Positions 11,731-59,654 of a stretch of 64,000 bases of DNA are shown one piece after another. Both the position numbers and the translations under genes were made by a program. The stretch is from a virus. The notes beneath the pieces were generated by a model, which was given only the letters and a program-made list of their open reading frames with translations, ran no database searches and was not told the DNA's origin. The first letter of the stretch is position 1; the number at the start of each line of letters is the position of its first letter. The stretch lies in IMG/VR virus record IMGVR_UViG_3300025701_000006, positions 14,328 to 78,327 of that record. One strand, 5' to 3'.

Positions 11731-14700
11731 GTTTATAAGTGGGGGCATAGCTACAGTTGTTATTATATCAACAGGTGTGTATATTGGTGTTAATCCAAAC
11801 ACACCGTACTCATCCCCCGCTTTAATTAGCAAAGATTGATCTTGAATCATTTCTAGATCTAACCCAATACCTGCTCCGGCTAGCGTTATGGCAGTCCTGA
11901 CGGCATGCTGACTACCTGCCTGAGTAATTACATGCTGTATACGTTTTACGTATTTAGTAAACATCAACACACCAATCCTATTTAAATACTCCTCGCCTCT
12001 GCTGTTAGGTAAGTTATAATTAACAAAAGAGTTTAAAAGTTGCGTGTGTCTGCTTGTTTTAGCTGTAGCCAAAAATTGCTCTCTTTCTGCTTTACCTAGT
12101 ACCCTTCTTCTATCTGCTTTACCCATCCTATTTATCTGCTTTCTATATGCTAAAGGCAGGTCTCTTTTCCCATCCGCTTGTTGTTCTTCAATTATTTTTT
12201 GCTTTCTATTCATTACATCTCTAGCAATTAAATCAGACATTTGTAACACTTCTTGATTTACTTTATACCATGCAGTCTCTTTACTTAAGTAAAGCCACTG
12301 TAAAGGAGTTTTAATTAAAGAAGGCACCTTACCTAACAACTTGTCCATTCCATCGCTAATCTTATTAGTATCACCCAGCTTATACATATTTACATCTTCT
12401 ATTACAGCTTGGTACATTCCTAAATCAAACAACTCTTTAATATCACTTTCTGACATTTCTTTTTCTATACGTTTAATTTCATTACGTAGGCGAGTAGCCT
12501 TATCGTTATAGTCACTAATTTCTTCATTATTTTTAAATCTAGTAGTGCTGTACTCTGCCACCAAAGCGTTTAGTTCTACCTTTTTAGCTTCTACTTGTTT
12601 TTGTTTTTTCATAAATTTACGAACGTCTTTAAAGCTATTAGCATAAGCTCCAACAATTTCTGTTAAACCCATTCCTGTATTTAAGGCATACAAAACATTA
12701 GAAATTATGTTTACTATTAGTATCACAGGCATCTTAAGAAGTATGTTACCTTTAGCTACCTTAACAAGATCTACAAAGTAAGCTTCAAAAATATTTATAA
12801 TACGTTTAATAGTACTAGGTAACTTGTTTACTCCATAAGCATCTGTAAATCTGGCATGCGAGTAGCCAAAATATTGGTCCATCAACATACTAGGGATAGG
12901 TAAGCTTTTATCTTCCCTGCTGTTAATAAACCTTTGAAAGGAACTAGGTAGCTGATTAAACAGTTTACGCATTTCTGGATCTGAAGATTCCGCACTTATT
13001 AGGCTATACTCCATTAAGTTATTTTTGCTGTTAGGATTATCGTAAACATCTCGTAGGTTTTGTTTAATAAGCTTTAACGCATTGTCATTTTGTTTTTCTC
13101 TAGCAACTTTGTCTATTAATGTACCTGAAGTCTTTGAAAGTACATCGACTATACTTTTATTTTGCTTTAAAAACTTATTTTTATCTTGTTTGTTCATCAT
13201 GTTTCGGTAATCTACTACATTACCTAGGGCGTCTAAAACAGGTACAGATCCTTTTGGTATATCTTTAAAAGACTTACCGTTATAAAGTTCTTCATTTATG
13301 CGTATTGCTTTAGCATTTAACTGGTTTCTATCAGCTTCAAACCACGCTTGTGCATGTTTTTTAGAATCTTGAAATTGTGCATACCTTGCTTCTCTTAGAG
13401 TCATACCACGACTACCAGGATTTCCTAGACCTACAACACCACTTTGTCTTTCAGGCCTGCTATAGGTATCACTAATGTAAAACCCTATAGGTTCTGCACC
13501 TGATATATCGTTACCATCAAACACTGATGCTAGCTTAAATCCTTGCTTTTCAAGCTCTTCTTGCTCTGATACTAAAGCGTATTTAGTCTCTATGCCATCA
13601 TCAAACAACTGCTTTATGTAGCCTTCTATCATGTGCGATGAATCATTTTTAAACAGTGCCTTTTCTGAGCCTTGTTTAAACGCTTCATATAGATTAACTA
13701 CAGTCCTTACACCAGATTCTTCATTATTAATAAGGTCTACTACTAGTTGCTTGCTAAGGCCTTTTTGTTCTTCTAAAGCACTTAAAGAAGCCATTTCTTC
13801 TATTAACGCTTCTAATTCTTTATTTGTAGGTAAAATGTCGCTAGTCAAATATCCTTTTGCTATATTTCTACTACTAGTATTTTGTGCTTCATGTCCTTCA
13901 CCCGTGACCATAAACTCGCCTAATCCTTTAGCTTGTGCTACTAGCCAATTACCTCTTTTAGGATCTAGTTTTTTTATTCTTTTCTCTAGACGGTTTATTG
14001 CTTTAACTCTATACGCATGATCACCTATTAGTTTACTTACCTGATCAGTTGAATAACCCTTACCGTAGTTTTTGTTTTTATCAAACAGACTACTGGCATT
14101 TGACTCTAATAGTATTTCTGTTAAAGCTATCTTTTGAGGGTCGTTAAGCTCCTTACTAAACGCGTTTGTTATAGCTGTAGCTACGTTACCTACATGAGTG
14201 TTTCTGTATAAATCAATGTTATTAGTTTTTAAACCTAGGAGTTCTACAGGTCCTGATATCTCTTCTGTTACTTTAGGAAGAATACTTCTAACAATTTCTC
14301 TTATAGAGTTATCTGGCTTAATACCGTAACCAGTAAAAAAAGCTCCTGCAGCATCTCGGTAGTAGTTGTTGTATATAGCCTTAGCAAAAAACTTACTAAA
14401 GAAAAGAACCTTCTGTATATGGTTCATATTTTGCGGTATTTCTACTTTATTTTCTGTATCAAATACTTTTGATGCTGCACCATCTAGGAACTCTTCAATT
14501 CTGCCGTCTGTACGGTCTATTAAATCGCTTACTTGTGTAAGTAAGTTAGGATTGTCAGTCAGTTCTTTATCTGCAGTATTGTTTATTTCCGCTAACTTAA
14601 ACGCTAAAGTATGTACTTCTTTTCTAAGGCTTTCGTTTTTGTTTTTAAAAGTATAGTTACCCATAACTGCATTTATTACGTCTGAAAAGAATGTTTTAAT

Positions 14701-47753: not shown

Positions 47754-47935
47754 TTTGTTTTCTTCCCTTTACTGCCTTTGGCGTAGTTTGGATCTTTACA
47801 ATACTTAGAAGCCGCTAGGTTTGCATACGCACTAGGGTACTTATCAAAAGTACGCTTAGCCCAAGATATACCAGCAGCACAAATCTTGTTGCTTTTTTCT
47901 TTTTTGCCAATAGTTTCTGCTAGACCTTTAGCCAT
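47750..47935 (-). CDS. Small basic protein
   Basis: C..G..WAK..F..YPSAYAN..ASKYCK; TAATG coupling. Confidence 0.75.
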   Translation of the reverse strand: MAKGLAETIGKKEKSNKICAAGISWAKRTFDKYPSAYANLAASKYCKDPNYAKGSKGKKTK

Positions 47936-48201
47936 TACCATTTCGCCTTGTCAGCCCAGTACGCTGCAGACATCTTGCCTTTCGCAATATTCTTAGCGTG
48001 GCGTGCTTTAAAAGATTTTCTACGTTTACGTGCAGCCTCTGACTCGCCATCTTTTTTAGGTGAGCCACTAACACCTTGTTGTCCAAAACGTATAGTTTTT
48101 TTCTTGCCGCCTTCACACGCTTTAACTACGTGTGATTTAGTCTTATGGCTAGGTGTACGTTTTGGTGAGTTACACGCTAGTTCTTCAGCTAGTCCAGACA
48201 T
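47935..48201 (-). CDS. Small basic protein
   Basis: PKRTP.H.TKSH.V..IRFGQQG..SFKARH..SAAYWA; AAGGAG RBS. Confidence 0.8.
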   Translation of the reverse strand: MSGLAEELACNSPKRTPSHKTKSHVVKACEGGKKKTIRFGQQGVSGSPKKDGESEAARKRRKSFKARHAKNIAKGKMSAAYWADKAKW

Positions 48202-51597: not shown

Positions 51598-52104
51598 TTA
51601 GTTTGCTAGTGGATTATCTAGTGCTCTTTGTAGCTTTTCTGTTACTCGTTGCTCTAGTTCTTTTAGCTCTCTATCATTACTATCTCGCAGCCTCTGTAAC
51701 TGGCTGTCATAATTTGCTTGTAGCTGGTTACGCTTATTTTCAAAACGTTCGTTTGCTTTATCAATCATCTTACGTACATCTTCTTCTGTCTCGCGTACCA
51801 TATCTTCAACTCTATCTGCTTGTTTCTCGATAGAAATTATATCATCCCGTAGACCAGACTTGATGTCTCGTGTGTATTCTATTGCTTCATCTAGTTTGGT
51901 TATCACTAGAGTATTCTGTGCTTTGATTTCATCCACATCAATATTCTGGACTATCTCCTTCATGTCCATGTAGTCAGCGTAGAATTCAAACGCACCCCAT
52001 GATGCACCGCCTAGGGTAGAAAGGGCTGTAAGAAAAGCAAACGCTTTCCCACCAGTAAAGGACATTCCGCCAAACTCAATAGTAGTTTTCTCTTCTTCAG
52101 CCAT
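51598..52104 (-). CDS. Membrane-anchored coiled-coil protein
   Basis: N-terminal hydrophobic segment AFAFLTALSTLGGASWGAF followed by a long coiled coil. Confidence 0.7.
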   Translation of the reverse strand: MAEEEKTTIEFGGMSFTGGKAFAFLTALSTLGGASWGAFEFYADYMDMKEIVQNIDVDEIKAQNTLVITKLDEAIEYTRDIKSGLRDDIISIEKQADRVEDMVRETEEDVRKMIDKANERFENKRNQLQANYDSQLQRLRDSNDRELKELEQRVTEKLQRALDNPLAN

Positions 52105-52112
52105 AGTATTTC

Positions 52113-52451
52113 CTATTTAGTTCTGCCTTTTAAAGCGTCTGCACCAAAAAACGCAGATACTAATACAGCAATAGAAGCAAAATACGTAGGAGCAATATCT
52201 GCAATAAGCTCTGCGGCTTTGTCTAGGCCTAGTAAAGATGTAATAGCTATACCGATTGGGTAAACTAGTAACCCTATTAAAGAGAACCATGCCATTTTAC
52301 GAATAGCATCTCTTTGTGCATCATTATCCTCAAGTTCTTTACGTTTAAACTCTAAATGCATATCCATTTCTTCTTTAGAAACGTGACCATCACCATTAAC
52401 ATCAGCGCCGTGTACTGCAGCAGAATCAATAGTTAGTTTGTTATCTTCCAT
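52113..52451 (-). CDS. Holin-like two-TM protein with an EF-hand loop
   Basis: DVNGDGHVSKEE, then two hydrophobic helices ending AFFG. Confidence 0.6.
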   Translation of the reverse strand: MEDNKLTIDSAAVHGADVNGDGHVSKEEMDMHLEFKRKELEDNDAQRDAIRKMAWFSLIGLLVYPIGIAITSLLGLDKAAELIADIAPTYFASIAVLVSAFFGADALKGRTK

Positions 52452-52459
52452 TATTACCT

Positions 52460-52867
52460 CTAGTTTACAAAGTTGTTTTGTGAGTTCATACGCTTAAGCG
52501 CATCTAGTTCTTGCTGTAGTTTTAGTACTTCAAGTCGTTTTATACGAAGTTCTAACTGGTACAAAGAGTTACAGTTAATTCGTTCTTTAGGCTTGTCCAG
52601 GGGGATAATAATCCTAGCGTAAACACCCACGTCTTTTGCACTACCTATGTCAGAGTTGCTTCCTAGTACAGAAGCGTTATTTATTATACCAGTAACCCCA
52701 AATTCTAACTGTGTAGCACCCCCAATAGCATTTTTACAGTCTAGGTTTCCTGCTCTAATACTATCTTGTCCGTACGTGCTAGGGCTGGACGGTAGTGCAA
52801 GATTTAATGAACTAGAGTCTGCCATTGCTGATCCACAAACAAATAAAAATAGTATTAGTTTTTTCAT
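52460..52867 (-). CDS. Secreted protein: Cys-flanked amphipathic beta-hairpin plus coiled coil
   Basis: Signal peptide (AMA|D); DC..QLEFGVTGI..DVGVYARIIIPL..NC; Leu heptads. Confidence 0.7.
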   Translation of the reverse strand: MKKLILFLFVCGSAMADSSSLNLALPSSPSTYGQDSIRAGNLDCKNAIGGATQLEFGVTGIINNASVLGSNSDIGSAKDVGVYARIIIPLDKPKERINCNSLYQLELRIKRLEVLKLQQELDALKRMNSQNNFVN

Positions 52868-52868
52868 G

Positions 52869-53255
52869 CTATTTAGCCTTAGAACAAATACGAGAAGATA
52901 CTGCAGTCAGTCTCTTAACGCTTTTTCTTAGTTTAGATTTAGAGCATATGTAAACAACTTTGTTGACTGTATCGGCCTTAAAGTACACATCTATGTTTAC
53001 TTTAGTTAGATAATCTATCTTTACTATCTTATACAAAGAAGTAAAAGGTACAGAATTAAATTCTGCATCAAAAACACCTATTTCGTAATACTGTACATCT
53101 TCCCTTCTGTTATACACAGTCACCTTAGTCTTATAGATAGTATCTATATGAGAAGGCTTTGCTTTAAAATAAGTAGGGGTCATCTCATGGGCCAAAGAGT
53201 TTGTAAAAAACCCTAAGCCCATAATAAAAATAATACCAGTTATTAGCCTAGACAT
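52869..53255 (-). CDS. Secreted single-Ig-domain protein resembling a pilus chaperone N-domain
   Basis: Signal peptide (SLA|H); MTPTY..VTVYN..YYEI.V..PF..IVKI..IDVY; two C-terminal Cys. Confidence 0.5.
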   Translation of the reverse strand: MSRLITGIIFIMGLGFFTNSLAHEMTPTYFKAKPSHIDTIYKTKVTVYNRREDVQYYEIGVFDAEFNSVPFTSLYKIVKIDYLTKVNIDVYFKADTVNKVVYICSKSKLRKSVKRLTAVSSRICSKAK

Positions 53256-53758
53256 TACTTAGCAATACATTCTGCTAAAACTAAAGCAGTATAATCCCCA
53301 CCTGGGAATGCTTTATCCCCACCTAGGGTTACTTTAGAAGATGTCTCAAACCAAGTAGATCCAGTAGCTAGTAAGTCGTAACGGTCTAGCATCCCTAGTT
53401 CCAGTTTACTTGACTCATACTGCCCCATACCTGTAGCATCTGATACCGTTTTTACAGTAGTATTGCCTTGCCATGTAAGCACATCGTCAATAATAGGACT
53501 AGTAGAAAACTCTTGAGGTGCAGTAATTTCTGCGTAGTAAGAATCTGCTAATGACACATCGTAACGTATAACCACAGGATCTCCACCATCAGAAGCATCA
53601 GTAGATAACGTATAGGCGTTTGGATTGCCATATGTACCTGCTGTGTCTGTTTGAATAATACAACGAGACTCAACAAAACCATGAATAGGTGCTGTTTCCC
53701 CTAAAACATTCATACTAGCTATAATACCTAGTGCTGTAAAACCTAACTTTTTAAACAT
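53255..53758 (-). CDS. Secreted chaperone-usher-pilin-like protein
   Basis: Signal peptide; N-terminal PIHGFVESRC; C-terminal PGGDYTALVLAEC. Confidence 0.55.
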   Translation of the reverse strand: MFKKLGFTALGIIASMNVLGETAPIHGFVESRCIIQTDTAGTYGNPNAYTLSTDASDGGDPVVIRYDVSLADSYYAEITAPQEFSTSPIIDDVLTWQGNTTVKTVSDATGMGQYESSKLELGMLDRYDLLATGSTWFETSSKVTLGGDKAFPGGDYTALVLAECIAK

Positions 53759-53775
53759 GTGGTGCTCCTATAGGA

Positions 53776-54684
53776 CTAGTTGCCGTATTGCATACTAATC
53801 ATTTTTTCGTGTAATACCTGCTGCGCTAAACCGTTTCTAAGGCCTTTATAACTATCAGGTAGTTGTTTGTCATTAATAGACACTTCTTCTTTATAAACGC
53901 CACCAGGTATAGACACACCGTAGTAAGTACCTATACCAGTAGCAGAATTAACAGACTCTAATACTTGAGATTGTGCAAAAGCGTTAGTAAATAACAGATT
54001 TGTACCTACAACAGATAAGGCTTTTTCTAACCGCTCTCTACTATCTAGGTCCTCATCTGATTCCCTTCTCTCTTTATCTTCTTTTGTCTCTAGATCATCA
54101 TCTTCATATACCGTATCATCAGGATTGTACTGGCTATTGTCTACATCCTCACCCGCATCGTAGACGTCATAACTAACTTGTACAACTTCTGGTACAGGTT
54201 GTTTGTATCCTGGACAGTTAGGGTCGTACTGCGGGTTATAGCAAGGATCTACCTTATAGGTATAAATCACATTAGCATTTTCTACTAACCCGTTTCCGTT
54301 TACCTCAATAGATCCTTTACCCCATAACTCTTTAGGCAAGTTACCTACAGGAACTGCTTTGCTAATCTGTGTGTTGTCTAGAGAGCCCGGTAACCAACTA
54401 TCAACCTCTCTGAACACATATCCTTGACCTAATGCATTTTCGTTCTGTACAGCGACGTCTACACGGTCTTCTGTAGCCTTACGAATGTTATAAGAGTAAA
54501 TAACGTTCTGTACTGTAAGTCCTGGAGGGCTAGGGAATACATTTCCCATAGTCCACTGTAAACTACTGTCCGCTACAGCGTTACCTGTAGAGCCATAGTA
54601 TGGCGTTATAGAATTAGAGTAAGAGTAGCAAGGCAGCAAGAGCACCAACGCTAATAGCACCTTTTTCTGTTTTACTAAGTTCAT
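53776..54684 (-). CDS. Secreted beta-domain protein with Cys motif and acidic linker
   Basis: Signal peptide (SYS|N); DPCYNPQYDPNCPGY; Asp/Glu-rich linker. Confidence 0.7.
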   Translation of the reverse strand: MNLVKQKKVLLALVLLLPCYSYSNSITPYYGSTGNAVADSSLQWTMGNVFPSPPGLTVQNVIYSYNIRKATEDRVDVAVQNENALGQGYVFREVDSWLPGSLDNTQISKAVPVGNLPKELWGKGSIEVNGNGLVENANVIYTYKVDPCYNPQYDPNCPGYKQPVPEVVQVSYDVYDAGEDVDNSQYNPDDTVYEDDDLETKEDKERRESDEDLDSRERLEKALSVVGTNLLFTNAFAQSQVLESVNSATGIGTYYGVSIPGGVYKEEVSINDKQLPDSYKGLRNGLAQQVLHEKMISMQYGN

Positions 54685-55168
54685 CAGACTTCTTTAACTC
54701 TTCTTTGGTTTGTTCTACGTGAGTTTCCCAAGCTAGTTGTGCTTCAGGTCCTATCATACCCATGTAAGGACAAGGAGTTCCAGCATGCATCATAGCATCA
54801 AAAACTTTTGTATCTTGGCACATTACTGATACTGCAGCTACTTTCATGCCCATGTCGTATAACGTCTTGGCGTTTTTAAGCCTCACACAGTTATCTTCTG
54901 TAAATGTAGTACCTGCACTAATACCTAGTATTTGTGTCTGTACTGCGCCTGCTACACCGATAGTGCACAAGTCACTATTAGAATTGCTACCTATCTGAGG
55001 GGCAATAGCAGAGGGAGGTGGCTGCTTGATAGTAGTAGTCATCTGCCCCTGCGTAGTAATAGTACTGTCATTCTTAGAATCTGTACGGATAACATCCGTA
55101 TCTTCTTGTGCTAGTACTGTACTGCTAAACACTGTTAGTAGAACTAGGGTGGTAATACGTGCCCACAT
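54614..55168 (-). CDS. Secreted four-Cys protein with beta-hairpin and C-terminal hydrophobic tail
   Basis: Signal peptide (VLA|Q); PPPSAIAP..C.IGVAGAVQTQILGISAG..C; ends GALAALLLLL. Confidence 0.7.
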   Translation of the reverse strand: MWARITTLVLLTVFSSTVLAQEDTDVIRTDSKNDSTITTQGQMTTTIKQPPPSAIAPQIGSNSNSDLCTIGVAGAVQTQILGISAGTTFTEDNCVRLKNAKTLYDMGMKVAAVSVMCQDTKVFDAMMHAGTPCPYMGMIGPEAQLAWETHVEQTKEELKKSDELSKTEKGAISVGALAALLLLL

Positions 55169-56407: not shown

Positions 56408-56632
56408 ATGGAAAACCAAGAAAAAGCAACAATCACTTTAGACGACAAAACTTACACAGTTGAAGACCTTTCCCAAGCAGCACAATACTGCTTAGGCCAG
56501 ATTCAAGACCTACAACAGCAGGGCCAAATTGCTCGTGCACGAGTAGATCAACTAGGTATGGCAGAACAAGGTTTTATGCAGGCTCTTAAAGAAGAGATTG
56601 CAAAAAGTGAAGAAAAAGTTTTAGAAGATTAA
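56408..56632 (+). CDS. Small coiled-coil protein; the only credible + strand gene in the virion region
   Basis: AAGGA RBS, own promoter and terminator; ITLDDKTY..EDLS..AQ N-terminus. Confidence 0.8.
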   Translation: MENQEKATITLDDKTYTVEDLSQAAQYCLGQIQDLQQQGQIARARVDQLGMAEQGFMQALKEEIAKSEEKVLED

Positions 56633-56648: not shown

Positions 56649-56679
56649 AAAAAGCCCTAGCAAATGTTAGGGCTTTTTT
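56649..56679. terminator. Bidirectional intrinsic terminator
   Basis: AAAAAGCCCTAGC-AAAT-GTTAGGGCTTTTTT between convergent genes. Confidence 0.85.
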
Positions 56680-56990: not shown

Positions 56991-59654
56991 TTAGTTTTCT
57001 AGTGCATTAATTCGCAATTCAAGTTGTTCAATTTTTGTTATGGCTTCTTGTAAAGCCGCTGTTAATAGTGGTACTATTTTACTCTGATCAATACCTTGAT
57101 GTACAGGATTACCTTCTTCATCAATTTCATTATACTCCCCTACAACTGCTTCAGGCACTACAGCCGCAACTTCGTGCGCTATAAAACCATCTACGGTTCT
57201 TTCAGGATGCTCAATAAAATTAAAACGTTTAACTGAAAGCTCCTGAACCCTGCCTAGGGCACTAGTCAAAGGTACCACATTCTCTTTAAGTCTGTAATCA
57301 GAAGATGTAGCGTATGTTGTAGTTGAATATGCGCGATAAATTCTTCCATACCTAGTGCCATTAGTGCCGCTTACAAAGTCTACAAACGTAGCCCCAGAAC
57401 CTCCTGTGCTTTCGTGTATAGTAATACAACCGTCTGCTGTAGTCCTTACGTCTAAACGTCCTGCTGTAGTAATAGACATTACATTAGAAGCAGCACCTGA
57501 GGGTCTAAACTGCAAAGCTCCTGATAGGTCATTTTCCTTAGTAGCAATGTCCCACTTAGTTGAAGTACCGTTCTTAAGCCTTAAGTACTTCCAGTAGTTA
57601 GTATTAGCGTCAATATCCATATGGTTGTGGGATGCGGTATCAGAAAGTTCCATTGTACCTGCTGCGGTAGACTTAAAATGGGTACCGTTGTCATAAAACA
57701 GGCCTGTATTATTAGCAAGGTGTATCCAATTTTCTACGTATAAATAACCGTTGGTATTGTATTGCGCAATTCTATTAGCTCCCCCTGTTTTAGAAGGTTG
57801 TTGCCCATGTAGTAAGTCAGCATCTAATCCAGAGCCTGAACCATCATTGCCCGAAGTCCATATTTTGTCCCAACCGTATTCTGTACCAGTTTCCGTTCTA
57901 CGTACATAAAACCCTGAGTTGTTCCAGAAATTATGTGCAAGTTGAAAAGAATACTCACCTGAGTCACCCCAAGAGTTGCCCCTACAAGTAATCCAGTTGT
58001 ACCACTCCGCAGTAGGCGCGTTTGTAGCTGCACTGTAAAAATGAAAGCCTGAAACGTTATTATGAAAAGTACTAGTAGACCTGGATTTGTAGTTTCCGTC
58101 ACCGTAAACAATGCGACTAGCTTGAATACCATCAACTGTATCAGCATCTAAGCCAGAACCTGAACCGTCATTAGCACTATCCCAAAAAGTAGCCCAACCG
58201 CCCCAAGCTGCATCAGAAGTAGCGGTTCTATGCTTAACATTAGTCCCTGTGTAAGCTACTTGTTCTTGCCTATGACTGGCGTCGTAACTAGACCATTTAG
58301 CAATAGTGTTTACTACGTGCCAGCTATCCCCTCCTGCTCCAGTATTAGTGTTTTGCTGAAAATCCCAAGAGGCATAACGGTCAGGGTAATAACTAGGTGC
58401 TCTAGAAGCCCCACGAGTATCTGGAATATACACTTGTGAGTGGTAATGACTATCACTAGCTACGGTAGCTGTAATGCTAGCGTTAGCCGAGCCATCCCAT
58501 GACACTGAGCCTGTAACATCACCTGATAACGTAATAGTCCTAGCTGTCTGCCATTTGGTTGCTGAACTAGCATTACCTGATAACGCCCCTACAAAAGTAG
58601 CTGCCTGAACACTTGCGTTATTAGTGCCACCATCAGAATCAAAGTGGTATCTACCAACTCCGTTTGCATCGTCATACCTAATGTAATCATTATTAGCAAA
58701 CTTTATCTTATTACCGCTACCAATAGTTAGGTTTGGCACTGTGAGTGTGCCAGTCATAGTATCGCCAGTAACATTTACAAAACGACTATCTGACTCTGTT
58801 TCAGTATAGTATCTACCATCATGCGTATGACTGTCGTTAGCAACCGTAGCTGTTAATGTAGCATTCCCTAGATTAGTAAAAGTCGCAGAACCTGTAACAT
58901 CTCCCGTAAGAGTTAATGTAGGATCAGCAGTAGCTGTGGTAGAAATACTAATATTGCTTGAACCATCAAAGTTTGCACTACCTGTTACAGCCCCTGTTAA
59001 AGCTATACTTCTTGTAGTAGTTAGTTTATCTGCGTTAGGATGATAGTTATCATTAAATATACTATACTCCGTAGCCCCATAAACAGCTTTTGGATGATCG
59101 CCAGGCTTTAAACGTAAGGTGCGAACTTGGTCTGCAGTAGTATCAAAATTTTGGTAAAGCTCAGTATATTTAAACGAACTAGACCAGCTAGTACGTACAC
59201 TACCCGTTAATTTATCATCAGAGTTGTAAAAATCAATGCTATTACCACTAATACTAGTGTTAGTATTTTTTAGTTTAATTTTACTACTAAAAGCTGATTC
59301 AATATATAATGGATGTTGAGATACATCACTTACTAATTGCATCTTATGGGAGTTTGAATCTACATTCGTGCCAACCAGTACATTACCACCAAACTCTGCA
59401 AGAGTCACAGTACCATCATCTTCTACTTCAATAGAAGGAATACCTGATACATCATTTACAGAAAATATAGTGCCTGTTAAAGAATCAGATATAGAAAATA
59501 GCTGACCTGCCGAGCCTGAAAATGACAGTGTTCCGTCATCTAGGGTAGTTAATGTTACTGTATTATTATCACCACCAGTAAATTCAATCTTCGGGTCTGC
59601 CGTAGTTGATCCTCTGTTGGGTGTAATTAATATATTTTTATCTGCGTCTGCCAT
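56991..59654 (-). CDS. Tail fibre with C-terminal intramolecular chaperone (peptidase S74)
   Basis: SDYRLKEN..GFIAHEV...PEAV; NDGSGSGLDAD twice; L[TS]G[AD]VTGS repeats; DSH.H motifs. Confidence 0.92.
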   Translation of the reverse strand: MADADKNILITPNRGSTTADPKIEFTGGDNNTVTLTTLDDGTLSFSGSAGQLFSISDSLTGTIFSVNDVSGIPSIEVEDDGTVTLAEFGGNVLVGTNVDSNSHKMQLVSDVSQHPLYIESAFSSKIKLKNTNTSISGNSIDFYNSDDKLTGSVRTSWSSSFKYTELYQNFDTTADQVRTLRLKPGDHPKAVYGATEYSIFNDNYHPNADKLTTTRSIALTGAVTGSANFDGSSNISISTTATADPTLTLTGDVTGSATFTNLGNATLTATVANDSHTHDGRYYTETESDSRFVNVTGDTMTGTLTVPNLTIGSGNKIKFANNDYIRYDDANGVGRYHFDSDGGTNNASVQAATFVGALSGNASSATKWQTARTITLSGDVTGSVSWDGSANASITATVASDSHYHSQVYIPDTRGASRAPSYYPDRYASWDFQQNTNTGAGGDSWHVVNTIAKWSSYDASHRQEQVAYTGTNVKHRTATSDAAWGGWATFWDSANDGSGSGLDADTVDGIQASRIVYGDGNYKSRSTSTFHNNVSGFHFYSAATNAPTAEWYNWITCRGNSWGDSGEYSFQLAHNFWNNSGFYVRRTETGTEYGWDKIWTSGNDGSGSGLDADLLHGQQPSKTGGANRIAQYNTNGYLYVENWIHLANNTGLFYDNGTHFKSTAAGTMELSDTASHNHMDIDANTNYWKYLRLKNGTSTKWDIATKENDLSGALQFRPSGAASNVMSITTAGRLDVRTTADGCITIHESTGGSGATFVDFVSGTNGTRYGRIYRAYSTTTYATSSDYRLKENVVPLTSALGRVQELSVKRFNFIEHPERTVDGFIAHEVAAVVPEAVVGEYNEIDEEGNPVHQGIDQSKIVPLLTAALQEAITKIEQLELRINALEN

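Follow-up and report, generated by a model that had tools for sequence, protein, structure and literature searches.

The DNA analysed was a window of 64,000 nucleotides from a virus (IMG/VR record IMGVR_UViG_3300025701_000006, positions 14,328 to 78,327), and positions below are those of this window unless another sequence is named. The full record is 78 kb long, with a completeness estimate of 75%. Directly after its endolysin gene, on the minus strand, lies a cassette encoding five proteins that look exported (s184, s302, s167, s128 and s135, named by their length in residues) and two membrane proteins (m112 and m168). It was read as a late envelope cassette of two modules, in which module 2 (s167, s128 and s135) would be a donor-strand assembly system that works without an usher; the chances for and against this reading appear evenly balanced. 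The product of the cassette most likely acts in or on the cell envelope around lysis, and is probably not a classical adhesive fimbria.

Complex prediction was done with three chains (two copies of s167 and one of s128), using our own alignments, in three runs and with three controls. s128 was predicted to dock on s167 by donor-strand complementation, at an interaction prediction score from aligned errors (ipSAE) of 0.71 (runs 0.70, 0.71 and 0.75) against 0.01 for the best control. The predicted local distance difference test (pLDDT) value of the partner was at least 82, and at least 92% of contacts were common to the runs. Of 80 solved complexes, 58 reached the mark used for docking, as did 2 of 110 mismatched pairs; this calibration is only rough here because own alignments and three chains were used. 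In the predicted complex the last strand of s128 (116-126) is placed between the first (30-37) and the last (157-167) strands of s167. Residues 161-166 of s167 pair in parallel with s128 119-124, and residues 33 and 35 pair antiparallel with s128 123 and 121. The mature N-terminus of s128 (23-29, HEMxPTY) is also in the interface, and residues 21-29 of s167 fall outside the listed s128 interface. A strand running parallel to the last strand of the subunit is the chaperone-type donor-strand geometry, and a double clamp is FGL-like. A complex of this type between the two proteins had been expected in a first-pass annotation of the window, made from the letters alone, and was borne out by the prediction and its controls.

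The AlphaFold2 (AF2) model of s128 had a pLDDT of 74, and the protein models as a single PapD-like immunoglobulin (Ig) domain, a 'half chaperone'. Comparison with VIA-align returned the pilus chaperones FimC (domain 1, Z 8.4, root-mean-square deviation 3.1, 94 residues aligned), SafB (Z 7.8), YadV (7.7), CfaA (7.2), CupB2 (7.0), PapD (6.9) and CsuC (6.7). Major sperm protein (MSP) domains, which share the structural superfamily of PapD, gave Z 8.0-8.8. The top 50 of 48,161 chains included eight pilus-chaperone entries together with MSP domains, at Z 6.7-8.8. Unrelated Ig domains matched equally well (CsxA, Z 9.1), so that these values indicate likeness of fold only. The s128 family is small and closed, with 161 clusters among 1.84 billion representatives, all of a single domain and of about 120-135 residues; one longer protein was found among the relatives. 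The mature N-terminus is conserved as HEMxPTYP. A fold search of BFVD with s128 returned only unnamed or unrelated viral proteins. A copper site at the N-terminal His of s128 was considered and set aside. The idea came from one Foldseek match to a Cu-only superoxide dismutase, and the predicted interface with s167 takes in this N-terminus. Among the His residues of the protein, H23 alone is invariant or nearly so.

s167 was modelled by AF2 as an Ig-like beta sandwich (pLDDT 81). Its conserved motifs are P-I-x-G-x-V-x-S-R-C near the N-terminus and GGxYT...C near the C-terminus, and the N-terminal stretch 24-35 carries conserved residues in alternation (I25, G27, V29, S31, C33 and I35). Weak Foldseek matches were obtained to FimF, FimG, CsuA/B, CsuE and the PapG pilin domain (E values 6e-3 to 4e-2, TM scores 0.3-0.5). 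A fold search gave Z 5.3-5.4 to the PapG pilin domain, Caf1 and FimI-complex entries, and many of the s167 fold matches were adhesins and pilins.

Several results weigh against module 2 being a donor-strand system. No Pfam match was obtained for s128, a profile search of PDB sequences with it was empty, PapD_N was reached by 1 of 21 diverse relatives (E 0.0096), and hhalign comparison with eight archaic-type chaperone N-domains from sampled Gammaproteobacteria gave a probability of 3.3%. s167 had no match to a fimbrial Pfam family (PF00419, PF05229 or the like) at E ≤ 1, and its profile found nothing relevant among PDB sequences. All but one of the five AF2 models of s167 fell below a pLDDT of 60. 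Its fold matches are generic, the best being to MSCRAMM domains at Z 7.6, in a range that the tool itself calls common. The model may have passed the docking mark by remembering chaperone-subunit complexes of known structure; since such structures exist, docking shows likeness and is no proof of binding. The only two Cys of s167, C33 and C164, flank the inserted strand, both touching I123 of s128, and their position on either side of it leaves no mutual disulfide in the docked model. In an oxidising periplasm, a C33-C164 bond might close the groove.

The first-pass annotation had likened s128 to one PapD-like Ig domain and s167 to a chaperone-usher pilin. For s128 the fold stood and membership of the chaperone family by sequence did not. 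For s167 the Ig-like sandwich and the weak pilin matches were upheld, but fimbrial-family membership by sequence was not, and the fold matches were of the generic kind given above. As far as prediction goes, the two proteins work like a chaperone-subunit pair and are not members of the chaperone-usher family.

Export was judged by heuristics on 21-25 non-redundant aligned homologues per protein, from which cleavage was inferred. All five N-termini have one to three Lys or Arg in the first 12 residues, followed by a hydrophobic stretch of 15-20 residues and a small-x-small site. The first 20 or so residues are poorly conserved and the remainder strongly conserved. The predicted mature chains contain four Cys in s184 (six in some relatives) and two in each of s302, s167, s128 and s135. 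By these heuristic signal-peptide calls all five proteins look exported. The first-pass description of five tightly packed genes behind the endolysin, with signal-type N-termini, even numbers of Cys and two membrane-protein genes following them, was thus confirmed. Beyond lysis and exclusion, lytic phages rarely make Sec-exported proteins late.

The third protein of module 2, s135, always follows s128. It has two amphipathic strands bracketed by invariant C44 and C99, then a Leu-heptad helix, a PxERINCN motif and frequently a C-terminal FEN. It matches phrog_37374 (E 4e-9), a family of unknown function. A role of s135 as anchor, nucleator or pore is conjecture.

Gene order was surveyed in IMG/VR. 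The order s184-s302-s167-s128-s135 was kept in all 39 loci found with s167, as far as the contigs reach, and nearly all of these also carry m168. The s128 profile found relatives on 437 IMG/VR viral contigs, and in 46 of the 48 s128-found loci with room on both sides the six cassette genes were colinear. Recurrence of the order in 39 of 39 and 46 of 48 loci makes the cassette a unit far beyond chance. Relatives of s167 are 50-99% identical, and clustering at 90% identity leaves more than 949 groups of them. Carriers include N4-like phages, among them the uncultured marine phage of the present record, and a contig of 328 kb. Outside these contigs, s167 had no match by tblastn in 50,697 phage records, the full six-gene cassette was in no cultured phage searched, and the s128 profile had no real match in 400 sampled Gammaproteobacteria genomes (one match of E 0.001 over 33 residues). 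No paper describing the cassette was found in the literature searched.

A scan of genome collections with s184 returned only contigs of metagenome-assembled genomes, from mixed taxa including archaea and Actinomycetota, and no isolate genome; these contigs were read as mis-binned phage DNA. They have a second architecture (type B): s184, one exported protein of 560-850 residues, sometimes m112, then m168. The large protein stands in for s302-s135; it has the s302 C-terminal domain and repeated copies of the s302 Cys motif. Module 1 without the trio s167-s128-s135 was also found in cultured pelagiphages and roseophages, sometimes adjoining lysis genes; the cultured carriers of this shorter form are HTVC115P (gp54...gp49), CRP-207 (gp75-gp72) and CRP-810 (gp53-gp51). 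Because the type B and cultured-phage forms lack the trio, module 1 (s184, an s302-like protein, m112 and m168) appears from gene content to be the older and wider set, and the trio to be an insert. The first-pass annotation had treated the genes as a single block. Their co-occurrence as a unit held in the synteny survey, but the block is really two modules with the trio inserted.

A working model was drawn from these results. s128 would cap the Ig-like s167 in the periplasm, its last strand filling the groove of s167, and its conserved mature N-terminus (23-29) would act as a second clamp, as in FGL-type pilus chaperones. The conserved N-terminal stretch of s167 might then replace the s128 strand, and this replacement would yield s167 oligomers or short fibres. 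s135, with its hairpin and coiled coil, may anchor or nucleate the s167 oligomers at the outer envelope. Module 1 would span the inner membrane and the periplasm. The surface filament and the ecological roles proposed for it in the first-pass annotation are pure inference.

The closest structural parallel is with chaperone-usher pili, both the FGL type (Caf1M-Caf1, SafB-SafA, DraB) and the archaic Csu type. As in the cassette, an exported Ig-like subunit is encoded beside an exported PapD-like protein, the donor strand is placed between the first and last strands of the subunit and parallel to the last, and the N-terminus of the chaperone is in the interface, as predicted for s128. Those pili have an usher and a two-domain chaperone of about 230 residues (PapD_N and PapD_C), whereas the cassette has no usher and one domain, and no sequence kinship to s128 or s167 was detectable. 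The Cys pair of Fim and Pap pilins joins strands A and B; that of s167 neither does so nor fits the docked model. Unlike those pili, the cassette is encoded by lytic-type phages, in the late region beside lysis genes, and its fibres are putative. The absence of an usher, noted for the window in the first-pass annotation, extends to the whole record: a six-frame search of its 78 kb with PF00577 gave no match at E ≤ 1, with a positive E. coli control. PF00345 (PapD_N) was likewise absent from the record, and an usher gene stood beside the cassette in none of the inspected loci.

An usher-less precedent is the Elr/WxL pilus of Enterococcus faecalis, for which a recent preprint reports chaperone-guided donor-strand assembly without an usher, by chaperones disjoint in sequence from the classical ones (10.64898/2026.10.17.759780). 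That pilus is Gram-positive; its chaperone is a membrane-anchored DUF916/DUF3324 protein, its subunits are of the WxL type and it is anchored by sortase (10.64898/2026.10.17.759780). It shares its usher-less donor-strand logic with the proposed module 2, but the cassette encodes none of those components. Because of this precedent, an independent usher-less system is plausible in principle. A bolder reading is that module 2 represents a third donor-strand lineage, a self-contained usher-less system in many phage families that would assemble a polymer within the dying host cell's envelope or on its surface. It would be unrelated in sequence to the Gram-negative chaperone-usher pathway and share no named component of the Gram-positive WxL pathway. 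This reading is tentative and somewhat unlikely.

Pelagiphages carry a viral curli (type VIII secretion) cassette with CsgG, CsgF and curlin-repeat genes, which is thought to alter the surface of the infected cell; like the present cassette, it is an order-conserved exported multi-gene set in marine phages of different families (PMC7029224, PMC9599517). Identity of the two sets was rejected. The proteins of the present cassette match no Pfam family at all, those of CsgG and CsgF included, and the annotated curlin-associated gene of HTVC008M is elsewhere: only the m112 homologue is shared with that phage, at a distance of about 6.5 kb from the curlin-associated gene and with other genes in between.

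Among other explanations, the whole block could be accessory lysis machinery, acting on timing or weakening the outer membrane or wall, with the Ig-like pair as a periplasmic complex that makes no fibre. The cassette is flanked by the spanins and endolysin on one side and by the gene of a small XhlA-like membrane protein on the other, with hardly any sequence left between genes. In topology m168 resembles an i-spanin, and m112 resembles a holin in size and topology. Relatives of module 1 adjoin annotated holin or spanin genes in roseophages, and in several loci members of endolysin or spanin families directly adjoin the cassette. Over the 39 non-redundant loci, however, the immediate neighbours are heterogeneous (endolysin families, spanins, tail fibres, endonucleases, a lipase and PhoH), and a relative of the window's endolysin was nearby in only 4 of 48 loci. 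The cassette is genuinely linked to lysis genes in this phage and some others, but not in general. An endolysin and a complete canonical spanin pair are already available to the phage, and the m112 homologue of HTVC008M sits among tail genes. m168 shares the i-spanin layout and the cassette adjoins real spanins, but m168 matched none of the spanin PHROGs, its exported partners showed no conserved lipobox Cys in the alignments, and the canonical Rz/Rz1 pair is encoded upstream. A lysis accessory is judged unlikely.

The second alternative is a coat or blocker on the envelope of the infected cell, for superinfection exclusion or as an anti-adsorption capsule like the F1 coat of Caf1; it would stop other phages, or progeny of the phage itself, from binding to the cell and its debris. 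The proteins look exported and would be made late, the s128 clamp resembles that of FGL chaperones, and SafB ranks high among the s128 fold matches. FGL chaperones build amorphous polymer coats and not rods. The very different phage types and recorded hosts would fit a receptor-independent shield. Against these points, no route over the outer membrane was identified, exclusion proteins are usually single early genes, and there is no experimental hint of such a function; a coat is considered very unlikely. A true chaperone-usher pilus that borrows a host usher would account for the pilin-like and chaperone-like folds and the docking geometry, but is highly improbable: s128 lacks a second chaperone domain, no two-domain relatives occur among its 161 clusters of about 120-135 residues, there is no sequence kinship to chaperones, and with PapD_N in only 6 of 121 sampled Gammaproteobacteria genomes most of the likely hosts would lack an usher to provide. 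Ordinary virion or assembly components with unused signal-like N-termini would suit a place among late structural genes (portal downstream, tail fibre upstream), yet hardly any weight is given to this, as the five N-termini vary in sequence and not in form, the even Cys counts are conserved, the nearest isolate AD45-P1 has portal and fibre genes without the cassette, and the cassette moves between unrelated phage types.

The cassette is among the commoner uncharacterised gene sets of aquatic phages. Should the pairing of s128 and s167 by donor strand without an usher be true, the principle of pilus assembly would have a minimal and portable version, and a new envelope structure would be given to infected marine bacteria just ahead of lysis. 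Possible effects would be on lysis, on adsorption of progeny to debris and on aggregation, and hence on carbon flow. A third lineage, if true, would be a new kind of late phage function. Because module 1 occurs in cultured pelagiphages and roseophages, some of these matters can already be addressed by experiment.

The minus strand carries, in this order, tail fibre, hairpin, promoter-like site, i-spanin, o-spanin, endolysin, s184, s302, s167, s128, s135, m112 and m168; the run with the cassette opens with the i-spanin gene. A gap of 93 nt with a second promoter-like site follows 3' of m168, then the gene of the small XhlA-like membrane protein and the portal gene. Features of the run are listed in the table.

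Features of the minus-strand run holding the cassette, in order of transcription (window positions)
Feature	Length	Position	Strand	Remarks
Promoter-like site		56380-56352	-	consensus match only
i-spanin	158 aa	55831..56307	-	homologue in locus L003 matches phrog_739 (Rz-like spanin), E 1.2e-13
o-spanin lipoprotein	130 aa	55590..55982	-	phrog_812 (Rz-like spanin), E 1.5e-16
Endolysin, phage lysozyme family	147 aa	55184..55627	-	PF00959, E 1.9e-8
s184, module 1		54614..55168	-	starts 15 nt after endolysin
s302, module 1		53776..54684	-	71-nt overlap with s184
s167, module 2		53255..53758	-	17-nt gap after s302
s128, module 2		52869..53255	-	1-nt overlap with s167
s135, module 2		52460..52867	-	1-nt gap after s128
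m112, module 1		52113..52451	-	two hydrophobic helices
m168, module 1		51598..52104	-	weakly hydrophobic N-terminal helix and coiled coil

The o-spanin gene overlaps the i-spanin gene, and the N-terminal hydrophobic segment of its product ends in TGC. The endolysin additionally matches endolysin and tail-lysozyme PHROGs. Inside the run, from the spanins and endolysin through m168, genes are separated by 1-17 nt or overlap, and because of this spacing the cassette is likely co-transcribed with the spanins and endolysin. The count of promoter-like sites in the region was not above that in shuffled sequence. Contigs from three metatranscriptome runs span parts of the cassette and its neighbours; DNA carry-over is possible, hence they are no proof of expression. 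The nearest isolate, the N4-like Alteromonas phage AD45-P1, has a portal 81% identical to that of the record, and no cassette lies between its fibre genes and the small gene on the portal side.

At 54614-54684 the start of s302 lies 71 nt within the 3' end of s184, in the stretch encoding the hydrophobic tail. An overlap of about 60 nt between the two genes was seen again in other loci (for example L015), and its recurrence suggests translational coupling.

s184 has four invariant Cys, a very conserved core and a conserved Leu-rich hydrophobic C-terminal tail, and matches phrog_20531 (E 5e-16). Its core domain is present in HTVC115P, HTVC023P, CRP-207 gp75, CRP-810 gp53 and JWAlpha gp25. In the last of these, from a cultured N4-like Achromobacter phage (L169, 3464-4378), the core domain is C-terminal in an exported protein of 304 aa that is rich in Gly, Asn and Gln. 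The gene of this protein adjoins restriction-alleviation, endonuclease and ATPase genes and is away from any cassette.

s302 combines a beta-rich N-terminal part with a Cys motif, an acidic linker and a C-terminal domain that is conserved and ends in LHxxMxxMQY. It had no Pfam match, and the ESM Atlas held a sequence entry for it without a model and no usable neighbours. The type B large proteins (loci L056-L071, for example L065 9123-11225 and L071 10464-12362) have 3-6 tandem copies of the Cys motif. The repeated motif is DPCYxPxxDPxCPGY-like and is present in single copy in s302; the N-terminal domains of the type B proteins are variable, with no Pfam match.

The two transmembrane helices of m112 correspond to hydrophobic segments 53-77 and 82-107, and come after an EF-hand-like loop whose matches are weak and under the Pfam cut-off. 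In the window (52113-52451) the loop is canonical-looking (DVNGDGHVSKEE) and the two helices are followed by a basic tail. m112 is a candidate calcium-sensing holin-like protein, holin-like in form only. Homologues are HTVC008M gp021, located among tail genes, a protein of Melnitz and CRP-207 gp72. The match in CRP-810 and CRP-345 adjoins annotated holin and spanin genes, and the place of m112 relative to the cassette differs between loci.

m168 stands at the end of both cassette types. Its N-terminal helix is rich in Gly, Ala and Ser, a coiled coil is present and the C-terminal DNPLAN is conserved; Pfam gave noise of the coiled-coil type. Its topology is i-spanin-like (N-terminal anchor, periplasmic coiled coil), and its sole PHROG match, phrog_10785, is weak (E 0.0017) and has no assigned function. 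Homologues are HTVC115P gp49, CRP-207 gp73 and CRP-810 gp51. The second (L168, 3292-3873) is annotated as 'putative lysozyme' and the third (L167, 5213-5635) as 'lysozyme'. The m168 profile matched them at E 7e-9 and 2e-8, respectively, and both have the N-terminal anchor, the coiled coil and the NPL end. Neither had a Pfam match at E ≤ 0.01 or support for a lysozyme family, and the lysozyme labels are probably wrong. The 'OmpA family' and 'lysozyme' labels in CRP-810 and CRP-207 were rejected as unsupported by Pfam.

A small, very basic protein is encoded at 47935-48201 on the minus strand and ends in FKARHAKNIxKGKxSAAYWADKxKW, an ending common to CRP-207 gp71 and CRP-810 gp50. In CRP-207 (L168, 4228-4506) and CRP-810 (L167, 5637-5888) the gene is directly 3' of module 1. 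In the window it is about 3.4 kb from module 1, past the portal.

On the fibre side of the run, a 13-bp palindromic hairpin between A-runs and T-runs at 56649-56678 could terminate transcription on both strands. It sits between the fibre-side genes and a convergent plus-strand gene (56408-56632). Within the gene of the 887-aa tail fibre, contigs from a seawater DNA run skip 75-910 nt in the interval 57054-58145, with joints at 57054/57172, 57230/58141 and 57850/58129. Read depth falls there, and the interval looks like a strain-variable segment of the fibre.

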